From a virus (Duplodnaviria > Heunggongvirae > Uroviricota > Caudoviricetes): a stretch of 38,193 nucleotides of DNA. Shown piece by piece: positions 2,974 to 34,782 of the stretch (its first letter is position 1; every line of letters begins with the position of its first letter). The DNA lies in the IMG/VR virus record IMGVR_UViG_3300048586_000134, positions 89,703-127,895 of that record; one strand, written 5' to 3'. Both the position numbers and the translations under genes were made by a program. The notes under the pieces are model-generated. The model searched no databases. It was not told the DNA's origin and was given only the letters and a program-made list of their open reading frames with translations.

Positions 2974-3366
2974 ATGAGTCTTTTACAGAAGAACACTAGA
3001 AAGCAGGGTGATGCAGGACTTGGACAGGCAATTGCCTATTTTACGTCTCTTGGCTACTCTGTTTCCCTTCCTCTCACCGAGAGTCAGCGTTATGACCTCA
3101 TTGTGGACGACGGAGAGAGTCTAAATCGAGTCGAAGTCAAAACTACGCGGAACAAGAAAAGCGATGCCGCGAGTTTTGTGGTACAACTTGCTACGAATGG
3201 TGGCAACCAAACATGGAACGGAACAATCCGAAAAATCTCCAAACTTGACAGCGACTATGTATTCGTGGTAACATCAGATGGAAGTCGGTATCTCATTCCA
3301 ACCGAACTTCTCGATGGTAAGCAGAATGTGACGCTTACCTCAAAATGGGATGAGTTCAAAATCTAG
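2974..3366 (+). CDS. PD-(D/E)XK putative homing endonuclease
   Basis: GYSVSLP...RYDLIVD...RVEVKT signature; stop overlaps first base of tRNA-Tyr. Confidence 0.85.
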   Translation: MSLLQKNTRKQGDAGLGQAIAYFTSLGYSVSLPLTESQRYDLIVDDGESLNRVEVKTTRNKKSDAASFVVQLATNGGNQTWNGTIRKISKLDSDYVFVVTSDGSRYLIPTELLDGKQNVTLTSKWDEFKI

Positions 3367-6048: not shown

Positions 6049-6375
6049 ATGGTGAACAAGACACGAATACGATCTGAGCTAAAGTCATGGTTTTACACAC
6101 TCAAGAGTCAATGTGCCTGTGTAGACTGTGGAGAAGCGCATCCAGCGTGTCTTGATTTCCATCACCGTAATCCTCGACATAAGGTTATGTCTGTCTCTGA
6201 GATGGTGAACCTGTGTTTTTCAAAGGACGACATTATTACAGAGATTATGAAATGTGATTCGCTGTGTGCGAATTGCCACCGAAAGCGGCATTGGGCCGAA
6301 GGAGGTTATTATGGAAAACGACATTCAACGCGTCGAGGTAGACGTGATCTACGTGCTTCGGAACAACGATGGTGA
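6049..6375 (+). CDS. HNH endonuclease (family A)
   Basis: CVDC...LDFHHR...KCDSLCANCHRKRH; start moved to ATG 6049, after the tRNA. Confidence 0.85.
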   Translation: MVNKTRIRSELKSWFYTLKSQCACVDCGEAHPACLDFHHRNPRHKVMSVSEMVNLCFSKDDIITEIMKCDSLCANCHRKRHWAEGGYYGKRHSTRRGRRDLRASEQRW

Positions 6376-6659: not shown

Positions 6660-6734
6660 GGTGGGTGTAGCCTAATGGTAAGGCGAACGGCTGTGAACCG
6701 TGCTATTCGAGTTCGATCCTCGACATTCACCCCA
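6660..6734 (+). tRNA. tRNA-His(GTG)
   Basis: G-1:C73, GTG 6693-6695, encoded CCA. Confidence 0.93.
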
Positions 6735-7172
6735 TATCCGAAGATTGCTCGCTCTCAATGTGAGAGAGGAAAGTCCGCGCAGCGCAGAGTAGGGTGCCAA
6801 GGCTAAGAACCGAGGGCACCAAGGAGAAACACATGACAAACCGACTATCGATGACGCTCTTGATCCGTCTGAACTCCGATTCAGAAATCACCGCTGACCG
6901 CGTTGCGGAACTAGTGGCAGAACGTCTGGCAGAGCTTCCTGACGTAAAGGCCGTCATGACGGTTGATGTGACCGATCTTGGTGACAGTCAGACTAACAGA
7001 AAAGATTCTTGGGTTGACGAAGAGGCTGATGTCCAGTCCGATCCAAGCTGAAAATAGTAGAGAATCCTCCCTGCTGCAAGTTCGACCGTGGTGTGTCACT
7101 CGCACAAGACCACGAAGTAACGCTGAGATAGATGAGCATTGGAACAGAACGCGGCTTACATAAAGGGTATGG
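6735..7172 (+). ncRNA. rnpB: RNase P RNA, bacterial type A-like, lacking P18
   Basis: GAGGAAAGTCC 6766-6776 and ACAGAACGCGGCTTA 7144-7158; P2, P3, P4, P5 (GCAGC/GCTGC), P6 (GAGT/ACTC), P7 and P15-17 all pair. Confidence 0.88.
6833..7051 (+). CDS. Possible 72-aa ORF inside the RNase P RNA S-domain
   Basis: AAGGAG RBS 6 nt before ATG 6833; amphipathic ADRVAELVAERLAELPDV. Confidence 0.5.
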   Translation: MTNRLSMTLLIRLNSDSEITADRVAELVAERLAELPDVKAVMTVDVTDLGDSQTNRKDSWVDEEADVQSDPS

Positions 7173-7255
7173 AAACTTCTTGCTTTCTCGCGGCATTATT
7201 CAAGTGCAAGGACACTTGTTACGACGAATTGTGTGAGATACAAGACGAAATTGAT

Positions 7256-7638: not shown

Positions 7639-8058
7639 ATGCGAAAATATACAGATGATGATATCATTGTGTATGCAGCAGAGTCCTTCAGTCTTGCGCA
7701 GTTGCTTTCTAAGCTAGGTCTTCGGTCTGCTGGTGGTAACTATGCACATATGAAGAAGCATCTTCAACGCCTTAATGTTGACACATCTCACTGGACTGGA
7801 CAGGCGTGGAGCGCCGACCAACGTCTCAAGGACTGGTCAAAGTTTAAGAAGATGGATTGGTTAAAAAAGCACCTTATCCGTGAGCGAGGACATCGGTGTG
7901 AGAAATGCTTGACAGAGATGTGGTTTGATGATATGATTACGTTAGAAGTTCATCACATTGATGGTGATCGCACTAACAACGTATACGAGAACCTTCAACT
8001 TCTTTGTCCAAATTGTCATTCGTACACCGACAATTGGCGAGGGAAGAATAAAAAATAA
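7639..8058 (+). CDS. HNH endonuclease (family B)
   Basis: CEKC...LEVHHIDGDRTNN...NLQLLCPNCHS. Confidence 0.92.
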   Translation: MRKYTDDDIIVYAAESFSLAQLLSKLGLRSAGGNYAHMKKHLQRLNVDTSHWTGQAWSADQRLKDWSKFKKMDWLKKHLIRERGHRCEKCLTEMWFDDMITLEVHHIDGDRTNNVYENLQLLCPNCHSYTDNWRGKNKK

Positions 8059-8482: not shown

Positions 8483-8610
8483 TGATGAGCCGATTGTTTT
8501 CGGTTATCTATTGGAAGACGTGGACGCAGGTGCGATTCCTGCCCTCCCGACCATCGGGAGGTAGCTCAGTAGCAGAGCACGAAAAATTCCGAGGCGTTAC
8601 TTGCTCATCA
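8483..8610 (+). ncRNA. Y RNA-like #3 (YrlA-type, permuted tRNA-Pro-like module)
   Basis: TGATGAGC[C]GA/TTGCTCATCA; GGTTATC; T arm 8526-8542, closed acceptor CCTCCCG-ACCAT-CGGGAGG, D arm TAGCTCAGTAGCAGAGC. Confidence 0.9.
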
Positions 8611-10114: not shown

Positions 10115-10248
10115 ATGTAAGCCGACTTGTGTGCGTTATCATCAAATTTTTGATTGTAGGTTCGAATCCTATCATCCTTCGGGATGTGGCCGAATGGCAA
10201 AGGCAGAAATTGGGGAAACCCATCTCGCACCTAACTTATTGCTTACAT
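10115..10248 (+). ncRNA. Y RNA-like #4 (YrlA-type)
   Basis: ATGTAAGC[C]GA/TTGCTTACAT; GTGCG/CGCAC; T arm GTAGG-TTCGAAT-CCTAT, CATCC-TTCG-GGATG, D arm GCC-GAATGGCAAA-GGC. Confidence 0.9.
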
Positions 10249-11032: not shown

Positions 11033-11105
11033 GGGGGTGACTGGCATGCCGAGCACTACAGGATTGTGGTCCTCGGAAACGCGGGTTCGAATCCCGCCAC
11101 CTCCA
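11033..11105 (+). ncRNA. tmRNA-like tRNA-like domain without mRNA domain
   Basis: GGGGGTG/CACCTCC with G3-U70 and A73, stemless D loop, CCGAG/CTCGG helix closed by a short hairpin, ACGCGGGTTCGAATCCCGCC. Confidence 0.72.
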
Positions 11106-11143
11106 CTGAGCGCTTTGCTCGCGGGTCAAACGAAGGAGGCTGC

Positions 11144-17252: not shown

Positions 17253-17693
17253 ATGGGCAATACCAATCAGCGCAAGGCTGAAACACTAGGCATGCCTCAC
17301 GGCACGGCCAACAACAAATTGCGAAAGCAACTGCTATTTAAATACGTGCGCAAGGCAGGAGAACACTATTGTTTCAAGTGCGGTGCGGAAATTGAGTCAG
17401 TTGACGATCTTTCCGTTGAACACAAAGAGGCGTGGGAAGGGATATCTGCTGATCTATTTTGGGATTTAGATAACATTGCTTTTAGTCATCTCTCGTGTAA
17501 CAGACCTAACACAAACGGAGGAGCATTCAAGGTAACAAGGAACTTCAACTCTCTCATGAAATGGTGTCCTTCTTGCGAGACCTATGTGGGGAAAGAAGAT
17601 TTCAACAAGAATGCGAATCGCAAAGACGGATTGGCTGATTACTGCAAATCCTGTCACAGAAAAAAGAAAATGCAGCGGTCATTCAAGGGCTAG
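17253..17693 (+). CDS. HNH endonuclease with C-terminal Zn module (family C)
   Basis: CFKC...LSVEHK...LDNIAFSHLSCN; CPSC...CKSC; last codons encode the tRNA-Gly 5' end. Confidence 0.85.
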   Translation: MGNTNQRKAETLGMPHGTANNKLRKQLLFKYVRKAGEHYCFKCGAEIESVDDLSVEHKEAWEGISADLFWDLDNIAFSHLSCNRPNTNGGAFKVTRNFNSLMKWCPSCETYVGKEDFNKNANRKDGLADYCKSCHRKKKMQRSFKG

Positions 17694-21839: not shown

Positions 21840-21879
21840 GGGAAGGTCGCTATGGTAGCGTAGGAGCCTCCAAAACTCC
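21840..21879 (+). pseudogene. 5' half of a split tRNA-Trp(CCA)
   Basis: GGGAAGG, D hairpin, GGAG-c-CTCCAAA-a-CTCC. Confidence 0.75.
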
Positions 21880-21890
21880 AAGGAGTCGCA

Positions 21891-22244
21891 ATGAGTAGTG
21901 CTGAATGGAAGCAAGCAAACGCAGAAAAGATGCGTGAGTATCGTAGAACACACTACGCCAACAACAAAGAAGCCTATAGCTCAAACGTTCTCAAACGCAA
22001 GAAAGAGACGCAAGAATGGCTTCGTTCGCTGAAGGCTGGAAAATCGTGTCGATATTGCACAGAGTCTTACGCGGCTTGTCTCGATTATCATCATCGTGAT
22101 GGTACAGAGAAAAAGTTCAACATTGCAAAAGCGGCTACTAATGGGTATAGTAGAGAAACAATCCTCAAAGAGATTGCCAAGTGTGATCTGATCTGTGCGA
22201 ATTGTCACAGAAAGTTGCACGATGGTTTTTATGGCGACTTTTAG
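21891..22244 (+). CDS. HNH endonuclease (family A)
   Basis: CRYC...LDYHHRD...KCDLICANCHRKLH. Confidence 0.9.
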   Translation: MSSAEWKQANAEKMREYRRTHYANNKEAYSSNVLKRKKETQEWLRSLKAGKSCRYCTESYAACLDYHHRDGTEKKFNIAKAATNGYSRETILKEIAKCDLICANCHRKLHDGFYGDF

Positions 22245-22256
22245 GAGTCGCCTCTT

Positions 22257-22328
22257 GTGGACTTGGTGTAACGGTAACATGCACGTCTCCAAAACGTGAA
22301 GATAGGGGTTCAAATCCTCTAGGCCACG
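22257..22328 (+). tRNA. tRNA-Trp(CCA)
   Basis: CCA 22289-22291, G73. Confidence 0.9.
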
Positions 22329-22353
22329 CCGATTGTTTCTCTTAGGTTCAAGA

Positions 22354-22381
22354 ACGGGTTCGATTCCTGTCCGTCCCGCCA
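22354..22381 (+). pseudogene. 3' half of the split tRNA-Trp
   Basis: ACGGG-TTCGATT-CCTGT, then CCGTCCC-G-CCA, which pairs 6/7 with GGGAAGG at 21840. Confidence 0.78.
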
Positions 22382-22471
22382 ACAGCCGCCCTCCGTCGAT
22401 TCGCAAAGCGAGAGGGAAGCGACGGCGATGAGCGTTCTTCAGGGTGTTATGGCGTTACATAAGGCCCAAAT

Positions 22472-23103: not shown

Positions 23104-23154
23104 AGGAGGATGAGGGTAGGTGCTTTTTGCTAACGACTGAAAGGAGTCAACAGC

Positions 23155-23583
23155 ATGAGTAGGGCAAAAGAACAGGCAGAGCTACTTGGACAAAGTTTTG
23201 GATCAGCTAACTCTCGCCTGCGTAAGAACATCATTTTTCATTTATTGGAACGCCTCGGTGAGAATGTGTGTTACGTTTGTGGTGAGGTTATTGAGGTGTC
23301 TGATGACCTCTCGGTTGAACACATTAAACCTTGGGAAAAGCGATCAGCAGAATTATTTTGGGCGCTGGACAACATTGCATTCAGTCATCGTAAATGTAAT
23401 AGACCACACAGCGGAGGAGAAAAGCGAAGAATTGAAAGCCCTGAAGGAAAGGCTTGGTGCGGCTCTTGTAGGCAACATCGTGATCGTGAAGATTTTGGAA
23501 AGAAACACGCTCGCTGGAATGGTTTACAACCTTATTGCAGAGATTGTAAAAAAGAAAGCGATGCCCGATATTATCGTGGGTAG
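23155..23583 (+). CDS. HNH endonuclease with C-terminal Zn module (family C)
   Basis: CYVC...LSVEHIKPW...LDNIAFSHRKCN; stop inside the tRNA-Ser acceptor. Confidence 0.85.
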   Translation: MSRAKEQAELLGQSFGSANSRLRKNIIFHLLERLGENVCYVCGEVIEVSDDLSVEHIKPWEKRSAELFWALDNIAFSHRKCNRPHSGGEKRRIESPEGKAWCGSCRQHRDREDFGKKHARWNGLQPYCRDCKKESDARYYRG

Positions 23584-23661
23584 GTGGCATAATGGTAGTG
23601 CAATAGTTTCGAAAACTATCCAAGGTCAAATCTTGTGCAGGTTCGAATCCTGTCCTACCCG
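23578..23661 (+). tRNA. tRNA-Ser(CGA)
   Basis: CGA 23610-23612, long variable arm, G73. Confidence 0.92.
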
Positions 23662-23665
23662 CTGA

Positions 23666-23697
23666 TGAGTCTTGACCGAGTAGGAAGGTACACGTTT
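23666..23697 (+). pseudogene. 5' half of a split tRNA-Ser
   Basis: TGAGTCT-TG-ACC-GAGTAGGAA-GGT-A-CACGT-TT. Confidence 0.8.
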
Positions 23698-23701
23698 TAC
23701 G

Positions 23702-24103
23702 ATGAGAAGTTGTTTAGTGTGTGGTAATTCCACGAGTAAAAATTCAAAGGGTTGTTGTAGTGTCATCTGCCGCAAGCAGTTAGAGCACAAGCAGTATATC
23801 GAACGGTGGTATGCTGGTTTAGAGACTGGTAATAAACCATCTGGTGCGAGCATTTCACCGTATGTCAGAAAACATCTTTTTGAGACACACAACAACCGCT
23901 GTCAGAAATGCGGCTGGGGGGAATTAAATCCGTTTACTGGTAACATTCCACTGCAAGTTCATCACATCAATGGTGACTCCCTCGACAGCGTTCCTGACAA
24001 TCTTGAATTACTGTGTCCGAATTGCCACGCACTAACCAATTTCTTCGGTAACTTAAACAAAGGTCGAGGACGACCAAGACGGTATGGGAAGCTGGCAGAG
24101 TAG
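23702..24103 (+). CDS. HNH endonuclease (family B)
   Basis: CQKC...LQVHHINGD...NLELLCPNCHA; last codons encode the tRNA-Ser 5' end. Confidence 0.9.
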   Translation: MRSCLVCGNSTSKNSKGCCSVICRKQLEHKQYIERWYAGLETGNKPSGASISPYVRKHLFETHNNRCQKCGWGELNPFTGNIPLQVHHINGDSLDSVPDNLELLCPNCHALTNFFGNLNKGRGRPRRYGKLAE

Positions 24104-24174
24104 TAATGCAGCGCTTTGGAAAGGCGTAGGCGCTGATGAAGCGTCCACGAGTGCAAATCTCGTGCTTCCCTCCA
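24086..24174 (+). tRNA. tRNA-Ser(GGA)
   Basis: GGA 24118-24120, long variable arm, T loop TGCAAAT, encoded CCA. Confidence 0.85.
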
Positions 24175-24178
24175 TCGT

Positions 24179-24231
24179 TAACGTGAGTCGTGTATGCGCA
24201 CGCGTGGGTGCAATCCCCACAGGCTCAGCCA
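24179..24231 (+). pseudogene. 3' half of the split tRNA-Ser
   Basis: ACGTG pairs with CACGT; variable arm; GTGGG-TGCAATC-CCCAC; AGGCTCA-G-CCA pairs 7/7 with TGAGTCT. Confidence 0.82.
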
Positions 24232-24244
24232 AAAGGAGGTTACT

Positions 24245-24472
24245 ATGCATAATGATCGATTCTTCTATTACGATAGCGTCCTCCACGATAACTACAGGAT
24301 GGACGAAGACTTCTATGCTCACGAAATTGGCGTCGTGCTACGGAACAGTAAAACAGGCGGTTATCTCGCGGTGCTGTATGAGCCAGAGCAGGAAGCCGAA
24401 TTTGATGAGCATGATGATGCCTTGGAGTGGTTAATCGAGACCTATCTCGAAGGTGAGCAATGTTCACAGTAG
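24245..24472 (+). CDS. Hypothetical acidic protein
   Basis: AAGGAGG RBS, ATG 24245. Confidence 0.72.
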   Translation: MHNDRFFYYDSVLHDNYRMDEDFYAHEIGVVLRNSKTGGYLAVLYEPEQEAEFDEHDDALEWLIETYLEGEQCSQ

Positions 24473-24828
24473 ATGCGGTGGTCGCTCATTTTGTCGGAGA
24501 TTACTTTCTACAAAGTAATAAAATGTCAGTCGAGAAAACGAAGAAGTGGAGGGTTGCAGCGTGGCACGGTCTTACCTACAGTCTGCCCTTTATCTTGCTC
24601 GATCCTTCCTTGATTGCCTTTCTGATTATCTTGGGAACGCATATCATCATCGACCGTCTTAGATTGACGACCTACATCTCATGGTTTCGCAATGGAGCGA
24701 ACTACGACCGAACAGCAAACTACGGTTATCCGCCAGAGGTTCCTGCCTTTCTGTCGATCTGGCTTATGATTCTCGTGGACAATCTTACGCATATTTTGAT
24801 AAACGGTTTGGCGCTCTATTACTTCTAG
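24460..24828 (+). CDS. DUF3307-like membrane protein
   Basis: AHFVGDYFLQ, HGLTY, THIIID, DNLTH. Confidence 0.75.
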   Translation: MFTVDAVVAHFVGDYFLQSNKMSVEKTKKWRVAAWHGLTYSLPFILLDPSLIAFLIILGTHIIIDRLRLTTYISWFRNGANYDRTANYGYPPEVPAFLSIWLMILVDNLTHILINGLALYYF

Positions 24829-24837
24829 GAGCGCTTT

Positions 24838-24921
24838 TGGCAGTTGGCCGAGTGGTAAGGCGCTTGTTTTGAACGCAAGTGAGGGGTAACACCTACGCGG
24901 GTTCGAGTCCTGCACTGCCAG
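24838..24921 (+). tRNA. tRNA-Ser(TGA)
   Basis: TGA 24870-24872, long variable arm, G73. Confidence 0.92.
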
Positions 24922-24957: not shown

Positions 24958-27900
24958 ATGGAGCACACAGATCGCGACCAATTAGCTCGTGCCTTGCACG
25001 GTGGACGTGCGACTGAAATTGAAGCAGCGCTTCGAGATGTTATTTCTGACTTCGTGCGTGATCAAACAGATGTGCGGCAGGCGGTCGCGGATGTCATCTA
25101 CCAAATGGGTATGGGTGATATCGATGCGGGTGTTATCTCGGTTAATGGAAGACTCGGAACGGTTGTCCTCACACAAGACGCCATTCCTGACGGCAACAAC
25201 GCCAAGCAGTTTTCCATTTTCGACAAGGCCAAGCTCGACTCTGTTGCAATTGGCGCAACCGCAAACCAGACCGACGCCTTTTTGGTTAGTCGGGCAAATC
25301 ATACAGGAACACAGTCCGCTGATACCATTGTCAACGGTGTAACCAACAAGGTACTTACGGCGGCTGAAAAAGCAAAACTCACCAGCATGAATGCAGGAGC
25401 AACGGTCAACTCCCCCGACAGCTTTCTCCTGAATCGGGCGAACCACACTGGAACGCAGTCGGCAGCAACCATCTCCGACCTTTCCAATGTGGTTCGTTCT
25501 ATTTTGGCTGATATCAGTATTGCGGTTTCGTCAGTTAACGGTCAGGGTGGCGATGTTGTCCTTGATCTTGATGACATTCTTGCTGGACAACTGAACAAGC
25601 ACTTCACAGAAGCCGAAAAAGTCAAGCTCCTCGGGATTGCTTCTGGTGCGACGGCGAACAACACGGACGCATTTCTTACGAATCGTGCGAATCACACAGG
25701 TACGCAATCGTCTACAACCATCGCGGATTTCGACACGGCAGTTGCCACGAATACGTTTGTCGCCGCAGCGACCGCTGCTCGACACACGCACGCGAACAAG
25801 TCTGTTCTTGATAATGTAACAGCGGCATACACAACCACTGAGCAAACAAAGCTCGCGGGTATTGCTCCAAACGCAACCGCGAACGCCTCGGATGCGCAGC
25901 TACGGGACCGCTCCACACATACAGGAACACAGGCTCCTGATACGATTGACGGTCTTGCGGAGACGATTCTCGACACCGTAGGGAACTCACTCATCGCTGG
26001 CGACAATATTAGCATCGTTTATGATGACGAGGGTGATACCGTCAACTTTGTGGTTTCCGCCACGAGTGGGGCAGTTTCGTCCGTCAACGGTCAAACGGGT
26101 ATCGTGGCGCTCGATCAGGACGACATTCCTGATGGAACAACTGCAAAGCAGTTCACTGCAACCGAGAAGACGAAACTCTCGGGAATTGCGACAGGAGCGA
26201 CAGCGAACTCGACTGACGCTCAGCTTCGAAGCCGCGCAACCCACACAGGAACGCAGACGGCATCGACCATCAGCGATTTCGATCTGGCGGTCTCTCAGAA
26301 CACGACCGTCCAAGCGAACACCACAGCACGCCACTCGCACACAAACAAGGCATTGCTTGACAGCTACAACCGCACCAACGAAGAGATTTCAAATGCGGTT
26401 GCGATTGCACACTCACACACAAACGGCGCAGTTCTCAACGCTACGACGGCTTCATTCACAACGGCACTCAAGACCAAGCTCGACGGTATCGCGACAGGGG
26501 CAACAGCAAACGACACTGATGCCAACCTTCGTAGCCGTGCGACACACACTGGCACGCAACCATCGACAACCATCTCGGACTTTGCAGAAGCAGTTCGGGA
26601 CACGATGGGAGTAGCGCTGGTCGCTGGTACGAACATCACAATTACTCCTGACGATGCTGCGAACACGATTACCATCAACTCAACCGCAAGTACGAGTGGT
26701 GAGGTAGAATCGGTTAACGGGCAGATAGGAATTGTCGTTCTCGATCAGGATGATATTCTTGACGGCACCACGGCTAAGCAATTCACGGCGACAGAGAAAA
26801 CGAAGCTCGCTGGAATCGCGACCGCCGCAACCGCAAACAGCACTGACGCGCAATTACGTGATCGTGCGACACATACGGGAACACAGCTTTCCTCCACGAT
26901 CAGCAACTTCCAGACAAGCGTTTCCGCGAATACGGACGTTGCTGCGAACACCACGGCTCGACACACGCACACCAATAAGACCATCCTCGATGCAGTCACC
27001 GCAGCCTTCACGACAGCGGATGAAACCAAGCTCGACGGTATCCAGGCTGGCGCTACAGTTAATGCGACCGATGCGGCTCTTCGTGACCGCACAACGCATA
27101 CAGGCACACAACCCTCCACGACGATTTCCGATTTCTCGGAAGCCGTACGTGACACGATGGGTCTGGCATTGGTGGCGGGTGATAACGTTACGATCACTCC
27201 TGATGACAACGCGAACACCATCACCATTACCTCGGTTGCGGGTGGACAGGTTGACTCGGTAAACGGACAGACTGGTAATGTGACGCTGACGCAGGATGAC
27301 GTGGCAGATGGACTGATTGCGAAGCAGTTCACGGTATCTGAGGAAACCAAGCTGGCAGGGATTGCCGCTGGTGCGACTGTTAATGATACCGATGCAGCGC
27401 TCCGTGACCGTTCGACGCACACAGGAACACAAACTGCATCAACGATCAGCGACTTCCAGACAACGGTAAGCGCGAATGCGACGGTAGCTGCAAATACGGC
27501 AGCGAGACACACGCATACGAACCAAGCCGTTCTCGACGCAACAACCGCATCCTTTACACTTGCTGACGAAAGCAAGCTCGACGGCGTTCAAGCAGGAGCT
27601 ACCGCAAACGCGTCAGATTCGTCTCTAAGGGATCGAAGTACCCACACAGGTACGCAGACATCAAATACGATTTCTGACCTCTCTGAGACGATCCTAGAGC
27701 GCGTGGGAGGCATCCTACAAGCAGGTGCCAATGTTACCCTGACGCCAAACACCGAAACAGACACCATTACCATTGCCGCAATTGTCGAAAGTGGTATGGG
27801 TGAGGTTAATTCGGTCAATGGTGCTACGGGTGTTGTTACCCTCGACACCGACGACATTCCAAGCGGTACAGTTACGTCACAGTACACGAACACCGAGAAG

Positions 27901-30900
27901 ACAAAGCTCGCAGGTATCCAGAGTGGTGCAACCGCGAATGCAACCGATGCTCAACTACGTGATCGTAGTACGCATACGGGAACGCAATTGGCGTCCACCA
28001 TTTCTGACTTCCAGACGGCGGTTTCCGCCAACGCCGATCTAGTGGCTCTGGTTGGTCATGACCACGACGCGGACTATGCCGCACTCGTTCACGACCACGA
28101 TGGGCGCTACTACACAGAGACGGAAGTTAACACGCTCCTGACTGGAAAATCAGACACAACTCACAATCATGACGCCGAGTACGCGACAATTGGTCACGAT
28201 CACGATCTTGACTATGCGTTGATTGCGCACGGTCATGTTATCGCTGATGTAACTGGACTCCAAACCGCACTCGACGGAAAAGCAGCAACCACTCATAATC
28301 ACGATCTGACGTATGCACCGATTGTGCACACGCACGACGAGTATGCGACGGATGCTGATTTGACGGCTGGTTTGGCAACAAAGTCAAATACGACGCATAT
28401 CCATGACGACCGCTACTACACAGAAACGGAAGTTGATGATGCGCTTGTTTTGAAAGCAAATGCTGATCACACACACGCCGATCTGGTTACGGATGCTGAG
28501 TTTGCAACGGCTCTAGCGGGAAAGAGTGACACAACCCACAATCACGATACTGTGTACGCGGCTCTTAGCCACGGACATGTTATTGCTGATGTTACGGGTT
28601 TGCAGGCGGCTCTCGATGCGAAGGCCGCAGCAGGACACAACCACGATTCGGCTTATGCCGCCCTTGTTCATGGTCACGTTATCGGAGACGTTACAGGTCT
28701 TCAGACGGCGTTGGATGGTAAGGCTTCAACATCGCACAATCACGATCTGGTTTACTCCGCAATCGGACACACGCATAGCGATCTGGTTACGGACGCGGAA
28801 CTGGCAACCGCACTTTCGGGTAAGGCTGATACAGTTCACGATCACGACACGCGGTACTATACTGAAACCGAAACGGACACGTTGCTTGCGGGTAAAGCGA
28901 ATACCGTGCATACGCACGACGACCGATACTTTACTGAATCGGAAGTAACGACCTTACTAGCTGGCAAGAGTGACACGACACACAACCACGATGCAGCGTA
29001 TGCGGTTATTGGACACAATCATGACAGTGCCTATGCAAGTATAACACACGATCACGACACCGACTATGCCGCGCTCGTACATGATCATGATGGTCGCTAC
29101 TATACGGAAACAGAAGTTGATGACGCGCTCGTGCTGAAAGCTGACGCGGATCATTTGCACACAGGAGTCTATGCCCCTGTTGCGCATGACCACGACCTTG
29201 ATTATGCAGCTATCGGACATCTTCACGATGACCGCTACTTTACTGAAACCGAGGTAACGGACGCGCTCGCCGCAAAAGCAAATGTAGCACACATGCACGC
29301 CATTGCGGATACAACGGGACTTCAGGCCGCACTAGATGGTAAAGCGGCAACCGTCCATAACCACGACGCGGCATACGCTGCTCTTGTGCATGGTCATGCT
29401 ATTACCGACGTAACTGGTCTACAGACGGCTCTTGATGGAAAGGCTGCAACAGGACACGATCACGATCTGGACTACGCAGCAATCGATCATACACACGCTG
29501 ATCTGGTAACAGATGGTGAGTTTGCGACAGCGCTTGCAGGAAAGTCCGATATAGCGCACACGCATGACGGTCGATATTACACCGAGACAGAAGTTGATAC
29601 CTTCCTGGCTGGCAAGTCTGATACGACGCATAATCACGATGCCGCATATGCGGCTCTTGGTCACAACCATGACGCCGACTACGCGGACATTGCGCACAAT
29701 CACGACCTAGACTATGCGGATATTGCCCACCTCCACGACGGTCGTTATTACACAGAGACCGAAATTGATACGGCGTTGGCGCTGAAGTCAGATACTACAC
29801 ATAATCACGCTGGCGTCTATGCACCGACTGTCCACGATCATGACTCACGTTATTACACGGAGACGGAAATTGATACGGCTCTAGCTGGTAAAGCAAACAC
29901 AACGCACGCGCACGCCATTGCGGATGTGACCAATTTGCAGTCCAGTCTTGACGGTAAAGCAAGCAGCACGCATAACCACGATCTTGTGTATGCGGCTATC
30001 GGCCACAACCACGATGCGGCATACTCCGCACTTGGTCACAATCACGATGATCGCTACTTTACGGAATCCGAAGTCACAACCGCTCTGGCAGGGAAGTCAG
30101 ATACGGGCCACACGCACACAGCGGCCAATGTTACCGACTTCAACACGGCGGCGGATGCTCGCATTACTGCTCAGAAGGGTGTCGCGAGCGGACTGGCAAC
30201 GCTTGACGGTTCTGGTAAGATTCCAACGACGCAGATTCCTCCGATTGCGATGACTGACGTTTCGGTTGTGGCGTCTCAGGCGGCACAATTGGCACTGACC
30301 TCGCAAGAGGGTGACGTTGTTATTCGAACCGACCTCAATCGCACCTACATTCACAACGGCGGCAGCGCGGGGACAATGGCCGATTGGACTGAAATGGCGA
30401 CTCCAACCGATGTCGTTCAGAGCGTCAATGGTCAGACTGGCGTTGTCACCCTGACGACGACCAATGTGAATGAGGGAACCAACCTTTACTACACCGAAGC
30501 AAGAGTCAACGCCAACACGAATGTCGCTGCGAATACGTCTGCACGTCACTCGCACAGCAACAAGGCAACTCTTGACGCGGTGACAGCGGCGTTCACGACG
30601 GCGCTGAATACGAAGCTGACTGGAATCGAGACAGGAGCGGATGTCACGGACGCTGCGAATGTCGATGCCGCAGGAGCGGTCATGAATACGGATACCACGA
30701 CAGCAGCAATGCAGTTCGTGGTTGATGAAGACAGCATGACCTCCAATAGCGCAACCAAGGTTCCAACCCAGCAGAGTGTCAAGGCGTATGTGGACACAGG
30801 ACTTGCAACGAAAGCAAGCAGCACGCACAACCATGATGCGACGTATGCAGCGCTCGTGCATGATCACGATAGCCGTTACTACACCGAGACGGAGATTGAC

Positions 30901-33900
30901 ACGGCACTCGCTGGAAAAGCGAATACCGCGCACGACCACGATACTCGATACTACACCGAAACCGAAGTCGATACCCTGCTTGCTGATAAGAGTAACACAA
31001 CTCACAATCACGACGCAAGCTACGCGCCACTGGTTCACAACCATGACACGCTGTACTACACCGAGTCGGAAGTTGACACCCTGCTGGCTGGAAAGTCCGC
31101 GACGAGTCACACACACGTCACCGCTGACGTAACGGGACTCGATACGGCTCTGGCAGGTAAGGCTGCTTCAAGCCACACGCACCATGTCAATGATCTGACC
31201 GCGACAGGAACGAAGTCTACGACGACCTTCCTCCGAGGTGACAACACCTGGGCGACTCCGCCGAACACAACCTATGCGGTTCCGACGCAAGCAGAAGCAG
31301 AAGCGGGTACGGCAACGACTGGACGCGCATTCAGCGCTCAGCGCGTCAATCAGGCGATTCAGGCGTTGGCTCCTGTTAAGGCTGCTGATCTGGCAACCAA
31401 GGCGAATGTGTCGCACACGCATGTCATCGGAGACACGACTGGCCTTCAGGCGGCTCTTGACGGTAAGGCAAGTACGACACACAATCACGATGCGACCTAT
31501 GCGGCTCTTGCACATACCCATGCTATCGCAGATACAACGGGATTGCAAGCGGCTCTGGATGGGAAGGCGTCAACAACACATAACCACGACGCGGCATACG
31601 CGGCGATTGGTCATAACCATGATGCTGCTTATGCGGCTCTCGTCCATGACCATGACACACGCTATTACACCGAGACAGAGGTTGATACCCTTCTTGGAGG
31701 AAAAGCGAACAGTTCGCACACGCACGCAATCTCGGATGTGACAAACTACCGTTCCGAAATCTGGAACGCGATGTCACACACCTCGCAACCAGCCGAAACC
31801 GAAATAGGTTCGGGAGCGGATGCGGGTACGGCGACTGCAAGCGTGGCGATTGGTAACAACGCGCAAACGCTTGAGGCAAACTCCGTTGCAATCGGTCAGT
31901 TTGCTGCTGCACACGGCGAAAGCTCGACTGTCATTGGTGATCTGGCGTATGCAATGGGTGACCGTGGCTTTGCGATTGGAGCAAACGCTGAAGCCGACAA
32001 TGCTGATGAAGGTGTTCTGAGAGCAAACTCGGTAAAGATTCAGCGGTCGAACGGAACGGGAGCAACGACGCTCAATGTGGCGGCTCCTGATGGTACGGCG
32101 AAGGTTCTTGGCATCGGCAATGATAACATTCCGACGATCAATGGCGTTGCACTCTCCATCCCGCACAACCATGACGCGACCTATGCGGCGATCAGTCACA
32201 CGCATGTTGCAGCGAACATTACCGACTTCGACACTGAGGTGTCCAACAACACCGACGTGACAGCAAATACGGCGGCTCGTCACAGTCATGCAAATAAGGC
32301 GCTTCTCGATACGTACGCACAAACAGAAGTCAATCTGGCAGATGCCGTAGCCAAGAAGCACAGTCACAGCAATCAGGCCGTACTTGACGCAACGACTGCT
32401 TCGTATACAACAGCGCTCAACACCAAGCTCTCTGGCATCGAAGCACTCGCTGATGTAACTGACGCAGCAAACGTAGACGCTGCTGGCGCGGTCATGAACT
32501 CCGACACCACAACTGCTTCAATGTCGTTTGTGGTTGACGAAGATGCAATGACTTCGAATAGTGCCACAAAGGTGCCGACGCAACAAAGTGTGAAAGCGTA
32601 TGTCGATACGGGATTGAGCGGAAAGGCGAACACGTCGCACACGCACACCGCAGCGAACATTACGGATTTCAGCACGGCGGCAGATGCACGAATTACGGCA
32701 CAAAAAGGTAATGCGAGTGGTCTGGCTACCCTGGATGCTGGCGGCAAGATTCCATCGACACAGCTTCCTGCTATCGGTCTCACGGATGTCAATGTTGTCG
32801 CGTCTCAGGCAGCGCAGCTTGCATTAACGGCCCAAGAGGGTGACGTTGCGATCCGCTCTGACCTGAACCGCAGCTATATCCACAATGGCGGTACAGCGGG
32901 AACTATGGCTGACTGGACCGAACTGGCAACGCCGACTGACGCAGTACAAAGCGTCAACGGTCAGACAGGTGCGGTTTCACTTACCACGACAAACATCAAT
33001 GAAGGTACGAATCTCTACTACACCGAGGCTCGTGTCAATGCGAATACGAATGTTGCGGCGAACACGGCTGCACGACACAGCCACTCCAACAAGGCTCTTC
33101 TTGATACGTACACACAGACCGAGGCAAACCTCGCGGATGCGGTATCCAAGAAGCACAGTCACGCAAATCAGGCAACGCTCGATGCGACAACCGCTTCCTA
33201 CACGACAGCACTCAACACGAAGCTGACAGGTATTGAAGCACTCGCTGATGTGACGGATGCGGCGAATGTTGATGCGGCTGGTGCAGTTATGAATTCGGAC
33301 ACGACAACGGCAAGTATGTCGTTTGTTGTGAATGAAAACAACATGGTGTCGAATAGTACGACCAAGGTTCCAACGCAGGCAAGCGTCAAGAGTTATGTCG
33401 ATACTGGTCTGGCTGGTAAGGCGGCAAGCTCGCACTCACACGCTATCTCGGACGTGACAAACTTACAGACAACGCTCGATGGTAAGGCGTCCTCGACACA
33501 TAACCATGATGCAACGTATGCGGCTCTGTCGCACACACACACGGCAGCGAATGTTACTGATTTTGCTGAGGTTGTCCGAGATACGATGGGAACCGCGCTC
33601 GTTGCGGGTTCGAACATCACGATTACACCAAATGATGTAGGCGATACCATTACGATTGCTGCTACGTCAACTGCTCCTGTAACGTCGGTTAACACCCTCA
33701 CTGGTGCGGTCACGCTTACGCAAGATAACATCGGTGATGGTACAACATACAAACAATACTCGCAAACCGAGAAGAGTAAGCTCGCTGGCATCGAAGCTGG
33801 TGCAGACGTTACTGACGCGGCAAATGTCGATGCTGCTGGCGCGGTAATGAATTCGGATACTTCGACGGCTTCTATGTCCTTTGTCATTGACGAAGACGCG

Positions 33901-34782
33901 ATGACAACGAATACCGCGACCAAGGTGCCGACACAACAGAGCGTGAAAGCCTACGTTGACGCGGGGCTTGCAACGAAGGCGGCGACAAGCCATAATCACG
34001 ATGCAACCTACGCAGCGCTTTCGCACACGCACGATGACCGCTACTACACTGAAAGTGAAATGGCGACTCTGTTGAACGCGAAAGCAGGATTGGTTCACAC
34101 GCATGCGGCATCTGAGCTTACAGCAACAGGTACGCGAGACGCAACGACATTTCTCCGTGGTGACAACACATGGCAAGTGCCTCCTCTTGCAACCCATACG
34201 CACGATGATCGATATTATACTGAGACTGAGATTAACTCTCAGATGTCAGGCAAGGCAAACTCAGTACACAGTCACGCCGCAGTCGATGTCATCGACTTCG
34301 CTGAAACCGTTCGTGATACAATGGGTGCAGCCCTTGTTGGTGGTACGGGTATCACGGTTACGCCAAACGACGTTGGAGATACCATTACCATTACGAATAA
34401 CGCCTCGGTGGTGACTGTCTGCGATTCTGCAAGTGCTGCATCGACAGCAAGTACGACAAGCACGACAGTCTATGCTACAGCGTTATCTACGAACATCACA
34501 CTTCCTGCTGGTACGTGGACGGTGAATGCTATTGGCGGTCTTCTCTGTACACACAGCGCAAGTGGTACTGTGAACGTGCAAACTGTTATTGCTGGTGATG
34601 CAGGAACAGCACGCGCAATCAGCGGTGTTTCAAGTTCATCTCCAAATATGGTGGTAGACAACGCTGTTAAGGGAGGCCAGTCTGGAACAATTACCTGTCT
34701 CATTCAGTACAAGTCCAGCACGGCTGGAACAACTGCTGCGAAGAACCCTTGGATTACCATTATTGCGGAGAGAACCGCGTAA
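24958..34782 (+). CDS. Giant (3274 aa) His-rich repetitive fibre protein, tail fibre/whisker-like
   Basis: Many HxHD, HTHDDRYYTETE, RANHTGTQ, SVNGQTG and HxIADVTGLQxALDGKA (phage tail repeat-like) units; YadA-head-like xAIG repeats at about 31810-32010. Confidence 0.85.
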   Translation: MEHTDRDQLARALHGGRATEIEAALRDVISDFVRDQTDVRQAVADVIYQMGMGDIDAGVISVNGRLGTVVLTQDAIPDGNNAKQFSIFDKAKLDSVAIGATANQTDAFLVSRANHTGTQSADTIVNGVTNKVLTAAEKAKLTSMNAGATVNSPDSFLLNRANHTGTQSAATISDLSNVVRSILADISIAVSSVNGQGGDVVLDLDDILAGQLNKHFTEAEKVKLLGIASGATANNTDAFLTNRANHTGTQSSTTIADFDTAVATNTFVAAATAARHTHANKSVLDNVTAAYTTTEQTKLAGIAPNATANASDAQLRDRSTHTGTQAPDTIDGLAETILDTVGNSLIAGDNISIVYDDEGDTVNFVVSATSGAVSSVNGQTGIVALDQDDIPDGTTAKQFTATEKTKLSGIATGATANSTDAQLRSRATHTGTQTASTISDFDLAVSQNTTVQANTTARHSHTNKALLDSYNRTNEEISNAVAIAHSHTNGAVLNATTASFTTALKTKLDGIATGATANDTDANLRSRATHTGTQPSTTISDFAEAVRDTMGVALVAGTNITITPDDAANTITINSTASTSGEVESVNGQIGIVVLDQDDILDGTTAKQFTATEKTKLAGIATAATANSTDAQLRDRATHTGTQLSSTISNFQTSVSANTDVAANTTARHTHTNKTILDAVTAAFTTADETKLDGIQAGATVNATDAALRDRTTHTGTQPSTTISDFSEAVRDTMGLALVAGDNVTITPDDNANTITITSVAGGQVDSVNGQTGNVTLTQDDVADGLIAKQFTVSEETKLAGIAAGATVNDTDAALRDRSTHTGTQTASTISDFQTTVSANATVAANTAARHTHTNQAVLDATTASFTLADESKLDGVQAGATANASDSSLRDRSTHTGTQTSNTISDLSETILERVGGILQAGANVTLTPNTETDTITIAAIVESGMGEVNSVNGATGVVTLDTDDIPSGTVTSQYTNTEKTKLAGIQSGATANATDAQLRDRSTHTGTQLASTISDFQTAVSANADLVALVGHDHDADYAALVHDHDGRYYTETEVNTLLTGKSDTTHNHDAEYATIGHDHDLDYALIAHGHVIADVTGLQTALDGKAATTHNHDLTYAPIVHTHDEYATDADLTAGLATKSNTTHIHDDRYYTETEVDDALVLKANADHTHADLVTDAEFATALAGKSDTTHNHDTVYAALSHGHVIADVTGLQAALDAKAAAGHNHDSAYAALVHGHVIGDVTGLQTALDGKASTSHNHDLVYSAIGHTHSDLVTDAELATALSGKADTVHDHDTRYYTETETDTLLAGKANTVHTHDDRYFTESEVTTLLAGKSDTTHNHDAAYAVIGHNHDSAYASITHDHDTDYAALVHDHDGRYYTETEVDDALVLKADADHLHTGVYAPVAHDHDLDYAAIGHLHDDRYFTETEVTDALAAKANVAHMHAIADTTGLQAALDGKAATVHNHDAAYAALVHGHAITDVTGLQTALDGKAATGHDHDLDYAAIDHTHADLVTDGEFATALAGKSDIAHTHDGRYYTETEVDTFLAGKSDTTHNHDAAYAALGHNHDADYADIAHNHDLDYADIAHLHDGRYYTETEIDTALALKSDTTHNHAGVYAPTVHDHDSRYYTETEIDTALAGKANTTHAHAIADVTNLQSSLDGKASSTHNHDLVYAAIGHNHDAAYSALGHNHDDRYFTESEVTTALAGKSDTGHTHTAANVTDFNTAADARITAQKGVASGLATLDGSGKIPTTQIPPIAMTDVSVVASQAAQLALTSQEGDVVIRTDLNRTYIHNGGSAGTMADWTEMATPTDVVQSVNGQTGVVTLTTTNVNEGTNLYYTEARVNANTNVAANTSARHSHSNKATLDAVTAAFTTALNTKLTGIETGADVTDAANVDAAGAVMNTDTTTAAMQFVVDEDSMTSNSATKVPTQQSVKAYVDTGLATKASSTHNHDATYAALVHDHDSRYYTETEIDTALAGKANTAHDHDTRYYTETEVDTLLADKSNTTHNHDASYAPLVHNHDTLYYTESEVDTLLAGKSATSHTHVTADVTGLDTALAGKAASSHTHHVNDLTATGTKSTTTFLRGDNTWATPPNTTYAVPTQAEAEAGTATTGRAFSAQRVNQAIQALAPVKAADLATKANVSHTHVIGDTTGLQAALDGKASTTHNHDATYAALAHTHAIADTTGLQAALDGKASTTHNHDAAYAAIGHNHDAAYAALVHDHDTRYYTETEVDTLLGGKANSSHTHAISDVTNYRSEIWNAMSHTSQPAETEIGSGADAGTATASVAIGNNAQTLEANSVAIGQFAAAHGESSTVIGDLAYAMGDRGFAIGANAEADNADEGVLRANSVKIQRSNGTGATTLNVAAPDGTAKVLGIGNDNIPTINGVALSIPHNHDATYAAISHTHVAANITDFDTEVSNNTDVTANTAARHSHANKALLDTYAQTEVNLADAVAKKHSHSNQAVLDATTASYTTALNTKLSGIEALADVTDAANVDAAGAVMNSDTTTASMSFVVDEDAMTSNSATKVPTQQSVKAYVDTGLSGKANTSHTHTAANITDFSTAADARITAQKGNASGLATLDAGGKIPSTQLPAIGLTDVNVVASQAAQLALTAQEGDVAIRSDLNRSYIHNGGTAGTMADWTELATPTDAVQSVNGQTGAVSLTTTNINEGTNLYYTEARVNANTNVAANTAARHSHSNKALLDTYTQTEANLADAVSKKHSHANQATLDATTASYTTALNTKLTGIEALADVTDAANVDAAGAVMNSDTTTASMSFVVNENNMVSNSTTKVPTQASVKSYVDTGLAGKAASSHSHAISDVTNLQTTLDGKASSTHNHDATYAALSHTHTAANVTDFAEVVRDTMGTALVAGSNITITPNDVGDTITIAATSTAPVTSVNTLTGAVTLTQDNIGDGTTYKQYSQTEKSKLAGIEAGADVTDAANVDAAGAVMNSDTSTASMSFVIDEDAMTTNTATKVPTQQSVKAYVDAGLATKAATSHNHDATYAALSHTHDDRYYTESEMATLLNAKAGLVHTHAASELTATGTRDATTFLRGDNTWQVPPLATHTHDDRYYTETEINSQMSGKANSVHSHAAVDVIDFAETVRDTMGAALVGGTGITVTPNDVGDTITITNNASVVTVCDSASAASTASTTSTTVYATALSTNITLPAGTWTVNAIGGLLCTHSASGTVNVQTVIAGDAGTARAISGVSSSSPNMVVDNAVKGGQSGTITCLIQYKSSTAGTTAAKNPWITIIAERTA

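Follow-up and report, generated by a model that had tools for sequence, protein, structure and literature searches.

Why should a phage tRNA gene be broken at its anticodon loop by a nuclease gene together with a second, complete tRNA gene that has the same anticodon? This arrangement is found in a stretch of viral DNA of 38,193 nucleotides (the window), which is the rightmost 38 kb of a viral record, a metagenome assembly of 127,895 bp that has direct terminal repeats. The window contains 40 tRNA genes with small open reading frames interspersed among them, several of which encode nucleases. An initial annotation, made from the letters of the sequence only, described a tRNA-Ser gene split by an HNH gene that carries a replacement tRNA-Ser. 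Two readings were offered, namely a selfish cassette that disrupts its target tRNA gene and complements it, and a nested tRNA that is excised like an intron, with ligation of the outer halves.

The 5' half of the disrupted outer tRNA-Ser(GGA) (23666-23697, plus strand) contains, by direct reading, the acceptor strand TGAGTCT, U8, a 3-bp D stem with the loop GAGTAGGAA, A26 and the anticodon-stem strand CACGT, followed by TT (U32 and U33). The 3' half (24180-24231, plus strand), also read directly, contains A38, the strand ACGTG, a long variable arm, a T arm (GTGGG/CCCAC with the loop TGCAATC), the acceptor strand AGGCTCA, G73 and CCA. The halves pair at 7/7 positions in the acceptor stem, with one G-U pair, and at 5/5 positions in the anticodon stem. 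The paired acceptor, the CACGT/ACGTG stem, the variable arm, the T arm, G73 and CCA had all been pointed out in the initial annotation and can be read from the sequence as described. The rebuilding of a class II tRNA from the two pieces also stands, apart from one boundary: the 3' half had been taken to begin at 24179, and comparison with the intact allele places this base (T) in the insert, so that the half begins at 24180.

When joined, the outer halves are called by ARAGORN as an 88-nt class II tRNA. Across both strands of the 128-kb genome, only five sites pair with the 3' half at 7/7 and 5/5 positions at tRNA spacing, and a D arm is present at only one of them, which lies 481 nt upstream. 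Since this is the only partner with a D arm in the whole genome, the pairing of the split halves is more than chance. All joins of the halves that give a 7-nt loop were tried, and a tRNA was called by ARAGORN only where the whole loop was taken from the 5' side, as 'Val(tac)'. This loop is ruled out as the original outer loop by the intact allele, in which the loop is TTGGAAA. The intron modes of ARAGORN (-i and -io) do not call the split tRNA and return only chimeras between paralogous tRNAs.

The inserted cassette (23698-24179, plus strand) has a length of 482 nt, of which only about 9 nt lie outside its ORF and its tRNA. The ORF (23702-24103, plus strand) encodes an HNH homing endonuclease of 133 amino acids that matches PF01844 (HNH; E 5e-6) and PF13392 (HNH_3; E 7e-6). 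The protein has a Cys-rich, zinc-ribbon-like N-terminal region and a C-terminal HNH motif, and its Cys/His motif columns (CxxC...H...CxxC) are invariant in an alignment with homologues; the domains and the motif assign it to a homing-endonuclease family with the catalytic motif intact. The second gene (24086-24174, plus strand) encodes an intact, spare tRNA-Ser(GGA) of 89 nt, which is called by ARAGORN and scores 49.4 bits with the Rfam tRNA model. This inner tRNA has U73, an encoded CCA, the T loop TGCAAAT and the anticodon loop TTGGAAA, as in the intact outer allele; both the inner tRNA and that allele score above the Rfam gathering threshold and have a Ser anticodon and a long variable arm. 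As initially described, the two genes lie between the halves and share sequence: the overlap is 18 nt, in which the last five sense codons of the HNH gene and its stop codon form the 5' end of the tRNA. The stop codon, TAG, is located in the D loop.

The inner tRNA matches the outer allele at 63/102 aligned columns (about 62%). Their anticodon stems, GCGCT/GGCGT in the spare and CACGT/ACGTG in the outer tRNA, differ at 9/10 positions. Both tRNAs have G55 in the T loop (TGCAA rather than TTCRA), which is found in no other tRNA of the window, and in both the CCA is encoded, unlike the other tRNAs of the array. The common TGCAA loop and the encoded CCA indicate that the spare is a diverged homologue of its target rather than an unrelated Ser tRNA. 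An A18:G55 covariation in the elbow of the two tRNAs was considered and was lost when the D loops were re-indexed, leaving the common G55 as its solid part. The proposal that the cassette carries a complementing tRNA holds in that the anticodon is that of the target; the term isoacceptor used for it is better replaced by isodecoder, since the two anticodons are the same.

Two further features of the cassette were considered and set aside. Inverted repeats (ACGATG/CATCGT) are present at its ends, and longer ones occur in the related loci L003 and L005 described below. They were rejected as transposon-like termini or as an RNase III stem, the duplex energies being no better than those of shuffled sequences (controls: 392/2000 in the window, 311/2000 in L005 and 104/2000 in L003). 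The start of the HNH ORF, GAGAAGTTG, resembles GGGAAGCTG of the inner tRNA and was considered as the vestige of a tRNA 5' end. Since GAGAAGTTG encodes the conserved zinc-ribbon N-terminus, the resemblance is probably due to chance.

Close relatives of the phage were not found among GenBank phages by blastn, in IMG/VR by the exact pattern of the 3' half or by the DUF3307 neighbour, or in JGI metagenomes by a pattern search. Relatives with empty alleles were obtained from Logan assemblies, which were reached via protein look-ups only, and they are short metagenome contigs (1.2-1.5 kb). The DUF3307 protein encoded downstream of the split gene has a 98%-identical copy on one of these, the 1,187-nt contig L167. 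Comparison of L167 with the window by BLASTN and MAFFT shows that the whole insert corresponds to GGAA at L167:447-450. On the left, L167:324-446 matches 23575-23697 of the window with 93% identity, and on the right L167:451-1187 matches 24180-24916 with 97% identity, the first difference in the right flank being at 24340. The two halves are contiguous in L167 and form an intact 88-nt tRNA-Ser(GGA) with the loop TTGGAAA (ARAGORN; Rfam, 47 bits). The GGAA missing from the window is the anticodon plus A37 of this loop. The uninterrupted allele that the initial annotation had proposed to look for in related phages is thus present, with flanks about 97% identical, and the claim that the cassette disrupts a tRNA-Ser gene is borne out: tRNA-Ser(GGA) is intact in L167 and has its GGAA replaced in the window. 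The insert is a presence/absence element.

The 5' half is identical to L167:415-446 (32/32) and the 3' half to L167:451-502, which gives 84/84 identical nucleotides at a flank divergence of about 3%. Zero differences compare with about 2.7 expected at the flank rate, which is not significant (P about 0.07). The absence of decay in the outer halves fits a recent insertion and is also compatible with selection on the halves.

A mobile cassette composed of a homing endonuclease gene and a spare tRNA gene has very probably inserted into the resident tRNA-Ser(GGA) gene and inactivated it. The cassette occupies and destroys a tRNA gene with the same anticodon as the tRNA that it carries, and empty alleles are present in near-identical phages at two sites, the second of which is described below. 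The outer tRNA gene appears to be dead and its halves are presumably remnants.

The loss of GGAA also bears on the reading in which the insert behaves like an intron, the nested tRNA and the HNH RNA being excised and the outer halves being ligated into a working tRNA by an enzyme of the RtcB or Rnl type. The outer halves have flawless acceptor and anticodon stems, which pair at long range in the minimum free energy fold of the 566-nt region, as such a process would need, but whatever is excised, at most 3 nt of the original loop remain and a Ser anticodon does not. Because the anticodon and A37 are deleted from the DNA itself, no excision can regenerate the outer tRNA. The only well-formed 7-nt loop that could be obtained has UAC, a Val anticodon, on a body of Ser identity. 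The position of the inner tRNA is favourable to excision on one side, where only 5 nt separate its CCA from the right junction. On the other side the HNH ORF is interposed and the inner tRNA starts 388 nt past the left junction, so that after a cut by RNase P at this tRNA the 5' half would still carry about 390 nt of HNH mRNA. The phage has a Ro60 gene and a gene resembling RNase P RNA, which would suit an excision pathway, whereas RtcB and a PF09414 RNA ligase were not found in the phage genome, and no group I intron or other ribozyme was found in the window at E<=5 with Rfam, in a search that does detect the intron of contig L058 described below. Inserts resembling tRNAs are known in the anticodon loops of phage tRNA genes (Devoto 2019, PMC6784885), and similar ones occur in the loci examined here; against this, relatives of the cassette that carry tRNA-Ala lose their outer halves piecemeal. 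Excision followed by ligation, the alternative offered in the initial annotation, is accordingly very improbable.

Three known types of tRNA interruption were compared with the locus and rejected. A group I intron lacks its ribozyme core (P3-P9) here, and removal of the insert restores no functional exon junction. In a tRNA-shaped intron of the Lak type, the inner tRNA would be expected at the junctions, but it abuts neither of them, and a 7-nt anticodon loop cannot be restored. An archaeal bulge-helix-bulge (BHB) intron or split tRNA is not matched by the junction, which forms only a 3x2 internal loop beside a 6-bp helix, and the complementarity of the termini is not above that of shuffled sequences.

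A second cassette of the same design is located at 21840-22385 (plus strand) of the window, where a Trp(CCA)-type outer tRNA is split. It was first spotted by an orphan T arm at 22354. The outer halves (21840-21876 and 22357-22385, plus strand) are called as tRNA-Trp(cca) when joined; in this outer tRNA the D arm is minimal and the acceptor stem contains an A-G mismatch. Between the halves are an ORF with an HNH motif (21891-22244, plus strand; no Pfam hit at E<=0.001) and an intact tRNA-Trp(CCA) (22257-22330, plus strand). An uninterrupted Trp allele is found in contig L169, where 10 nt stand in place of window positions 21877-22356 and the Rfam tRNA score is 38.3 bits. Contig L168 was rejected as an empty Trp site, as it carries a third, divergent allele of tRNA-Trp.

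Another HNH gene, of a different subfamily (Pfam HNH, E 3.7e-8), lies at 23155-23583 (plus strand), and its end overlaps a tRNA-Ser(CGA) gene (23578-23662, plus strand; ARAGORN) that is located 3 nt upstream of the split gene. This HNH gene is missing from L167, in which window positions 23110-23574 are represented by 189 nt with an ORF of 57 amino acids. The window and L167 differ here at nine positions, all within 23577-23601. The tRNA-Ser(CGA) varies between both phages in the D arm only, and the stem changes compensate (GCA/TGC in the window, CTG/CAG in L167). These D-arm changes beside the HNH gene possibly represent co-conversion by a second homing endonuclease, or a tract that confers immunity to it.

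Other nuclease genes of the window also end at tRNA genes. A PD-(D/E)XK ORF (2974-3366) ends on the first base of a tRNA-Tyr gene, an HNH ORF (7639-8058) ends 2 nt before tRNA-Leu(TAG), and a further HNH ORF (17253-17693) shares 22 nt with tRNA-Gly(GCC). None of these three genes was seen to be flanked by outer halves.

Homologues of the HNH gene from the Ser cassette are common in viral contigs and are found almost always in tRNA arrays. A donor with a closely related cassette was not found, the best HNH relatives being 52-58% identical. At most homologous loci, the end of the ORF is about -37 to +67 nt from the start of a tRNA. Among cultured phages, homologues are carried for example by T5-like phages of Klebsiella, Salmonella and E. 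coli, and by an Enterococcus phage. Structural scans around homologous HNH genes (35-52% identity) reveal nested layouts in unrelated viral contigs. In L020, a Ser-type tRNA (G73) is split by an HNH gene and a tRNA-Ser(TGA), and in L005 and L003, tRNAs with G3:U70 and A73 (Ala identity) are split by tRNA-Ala(TGC) and an HNH gene. The nested cases are spread over at least three lineages of the HNH tree, which indicates that the nested cassettes have independent origins. Within the Ala clade, L004 and L007 retain an orphan 3' piece only and L006 retains neither half, and the HNH ORF is kept in all three. This partial and full loss indicates that the outer halves are dispensable and are decaying.

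The recurrence of the layout also addresses its authenticity. The locus comes from a metagenome assembly, and tRNA paralogues are classic sites of misassembly, so the nested layout could in principle be a chimera of two strains or of paralogous tRNA-Ser genes. The same architecture is nevertheless present in independent assemblies of other samples (L020, L003 and L005) and at a second site of this genome. Both junctions lie in unique sequence, and the cassette is single-copy in the genome, its only other match being a 73-nt stretch at 73% identity. An assembly artefact is the least probable of the explanations considered.

The decay in the Ala clade is likewise relevant to the possibility that the outer halves are dead as a tRNA and have been co-opted, a long-range tRNA-like fold regulating the nuclease. 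Such a fold could define the HNH transcript through its RNase P and 3'-end processing sites, or could sequester the ribosome-binding site. The only Shine-Dalgarno-like sequence (AGGAAGG) is indeed located in the old D loop and arm, 13 nt before the ATG, and the HNH start codon lies 6 nt past the old anticodon stem. Long-range pairing of the acceptor strands is predicted in all four nested loci (4/4), yet comparative support is lacking, as the relatives with Ala cassettes drop the 5' half or both halves and retain the HNH ORF. The outer halves have no substitutions relative to the intact allele, as co-option would predict, but their absence over 84 nt is not significant at 3% divergence. The complementarity of the cassette termini is no better than that of shuffled sequence. 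Co-option of the halves is unlikely, though less so than excision, and insertion of a mobile cassette that left inactive remnants is preferred.

A connection with classical homing is provided by contig L058, a viral contig of 207 kb. At L058:2904-3661, a tRNA-Ser(UGA) gene contains a group I intron between U34 and G35 (Rfam, 49.2 bits, E 5e-10). The 5' part of this intron contains an HNH ORF homologous to that of the window, a link between the HNH family and classical homing by introns into the same position of a tRNA. Members of the family occur between tRNA genes, within a group I intron of a tRNA gene, and within a broken tRNA gene together with a complete replacement that has the same anticodon, which makes three states in all. 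In contig L054 (2771-3383), an HNH homologue is located between tRNA-Thr(TGT) genes, 17 nt from the upstream one and overlapping the downstream one by 9 nt. This arrangement is possibly a variant outcome of the same process.

Under the cassette reading, when a phage without the cassette co-infects the cell, its intact tRNA-Ser(GGA) gene would be cut or nicked by the HNH protein close to the anticodon stem-loop. Recombinational repair from the carrier genome would then copy the cassette into the break, the tRNA halves and the flanks serving as homology. The filled site would be immune, since its target is split, and the carried tRNA would probably be immune to HNH cleavage as well, since its anticodon stem differs from that of the target at 9/10 positions. 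Loss of the resident tRNA would cost nothing, because a tRNA with the same anticodon is supplied by the cassette; the spare copy would take the role that self-splicing has for endonucleases borne by introns. Maturation of the spare tRNA by RNase P would also truncate the HNH message, whose stop codon is inside this tRNA, and expression of the nuclease may be kept low in this way.

The nearest characterised system is SegB of phages T4 and T6, a free-standing GIY-YIG homing endonuclease encoded in a tRNA cluster, which recognises a T-arm motif (PMC2330249; PMC13096335). SegB is inherited preferentially in mixed infection and neighbouring tRNA genes are carried along, so that the tRNA genes plus segB form a recombining module (PMC2330249; PMC13096335). 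Both nucleases are encoded by free-standing genes among phage tRNA genes. They differ in that SegB is a GIY-YIG enzyme encoded between tRNA genes, whereas the cassette of the window encodes an HNH enzyme inside a tRNA gene. SegB has not been reported within a tRNA gene or flanked by split halves with a spare of the same anticodon, as the cassette is.

Group I introns with homing endonuclease ORFs occur in the anticodon loops of bacterial tRNA genes (review, PMC3984707). The cassette resembles these mobile introns in its insertion at the anticodon loop, and would share with them a nuclease-driven spread to empty alleles and phenotypic neutrality. In group I introns, neutrality is achieved by splicing, whereas the cassette has no ribozyme, its target has lost the anticodon, and neutrality would come from a carried replacement gene. 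In phage Aeh1, insertion of the endonuclease gene mobE into nrdA reportedly splits a protein gene whose pieces still make a working split enzyme. There too, a free-standing gene of the HNH family has entered a needed gene with neither an intron nor an intein around it; its pieces are functional, whereas the split tRNA gene of the window appears dead and a complete spare is supplied.

Lak megaphages contain 'enigmatic' tRNA introns, one of which may encode a tRNA, and alleles with and without the insert are known (Devoto et al. 2019, PMC6784885). As in the window, tRNA-like sequence is nested at the anticodon loop of a phage tRNA gene, and similar short inserts are seen in L008, L012 and L046. 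The Lak inserts are short, contain no nuclease gene and are read as introns, and the host tRNA is presumed intact. In the window, unlike in Lak phages, the host tRNA has lost its anticodon and a nuclease gene is located upstream of a full tRNA.

Inserts of 55-130 nt in the anticodon loops of tRNA genes with otherwise perfect stems were observed in several contigs (L008/L009/L010:2424-2586, L008:4830-4966, L012/L013:2190-2331, L031:2359-2479 and L046-L048:~6122-6316). Some of them look like small tRNA-like helices that end in TCCA and have the T loops TGCAAGA or TTCAAAT. They resemble the tRNA introns of Lak phages.

Integrative elements enter tRNA genes and restore them with a carried duplicate of the 3' end. 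In these elements, as is proposed for the cassette, replacement tRNA sequence neutralises insertion into a tRNA gene. They rely on integrases and att sites and reconstitute the gene that they enter, whereas the cassette has a nuclease and a separate, whole tRNA and leaves its target broken. No account of a nuclease cassette that disrupts a tRNA gene and brings a substitute for it was found in the literature. To our knowledge, homing endonuclease genes are thought to survive in essential genes only by means of self-splicing introns or inteins.

Cassettes of a nuclease gene and a spare tRNA gene might, more tentatively, be a general third way to harmless invasion beside introns and inteins, and the main engine that builds and reshuffles phage tRNA arrays, although this broader proposal is somewhat more doubtful than not. 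If it is true, each homing event would add one tRNA gene and leave a decaying remnant, and the location of nearly every nuclease gene of the 40-tRNA array immediately upstream of a tRNA would be explained. The locus provides a concrete and testable case for neutrality based on replacement. A route by which genes are added to phage tRNA arrays is suggested as well, together with a reason for the many nuclease genes and orphan tRNA halves scattered through them. For annotation, orphan tRNA halves beside nuclease genes would be better regarded as scars than as split or intron-containing tRNAs.

Several other features of the window were recorded. A match to the full Rfam model of bacterial class A RNase P RNA is present in the tRNA array at 6732-7176 (58 bits, E 2e-15; gathering score 100), and a 76-nt tmRNA-like match is present at 11033-11108 (46 bits; gathering score 47). 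Two weak matches to YrlA (Y RNA-like) are located at 8486-8610 and 10130-10234, and orphan T-arm-like motifs at 8526, 10156 and 11081. A TROVE/Ro60 gene (120.9 bits) at 89105-90013 of the genome runs into the start of the window. Directly after a tRNA-Ser(TGA) gene, an ORF of 3,274 amino acids (24958-34782) contains many His-x-His-Asp and Thr-His-Thr-Gly-Thr-Gln repeats, and about 75% DNA identity to this ORF is found in contig L166.
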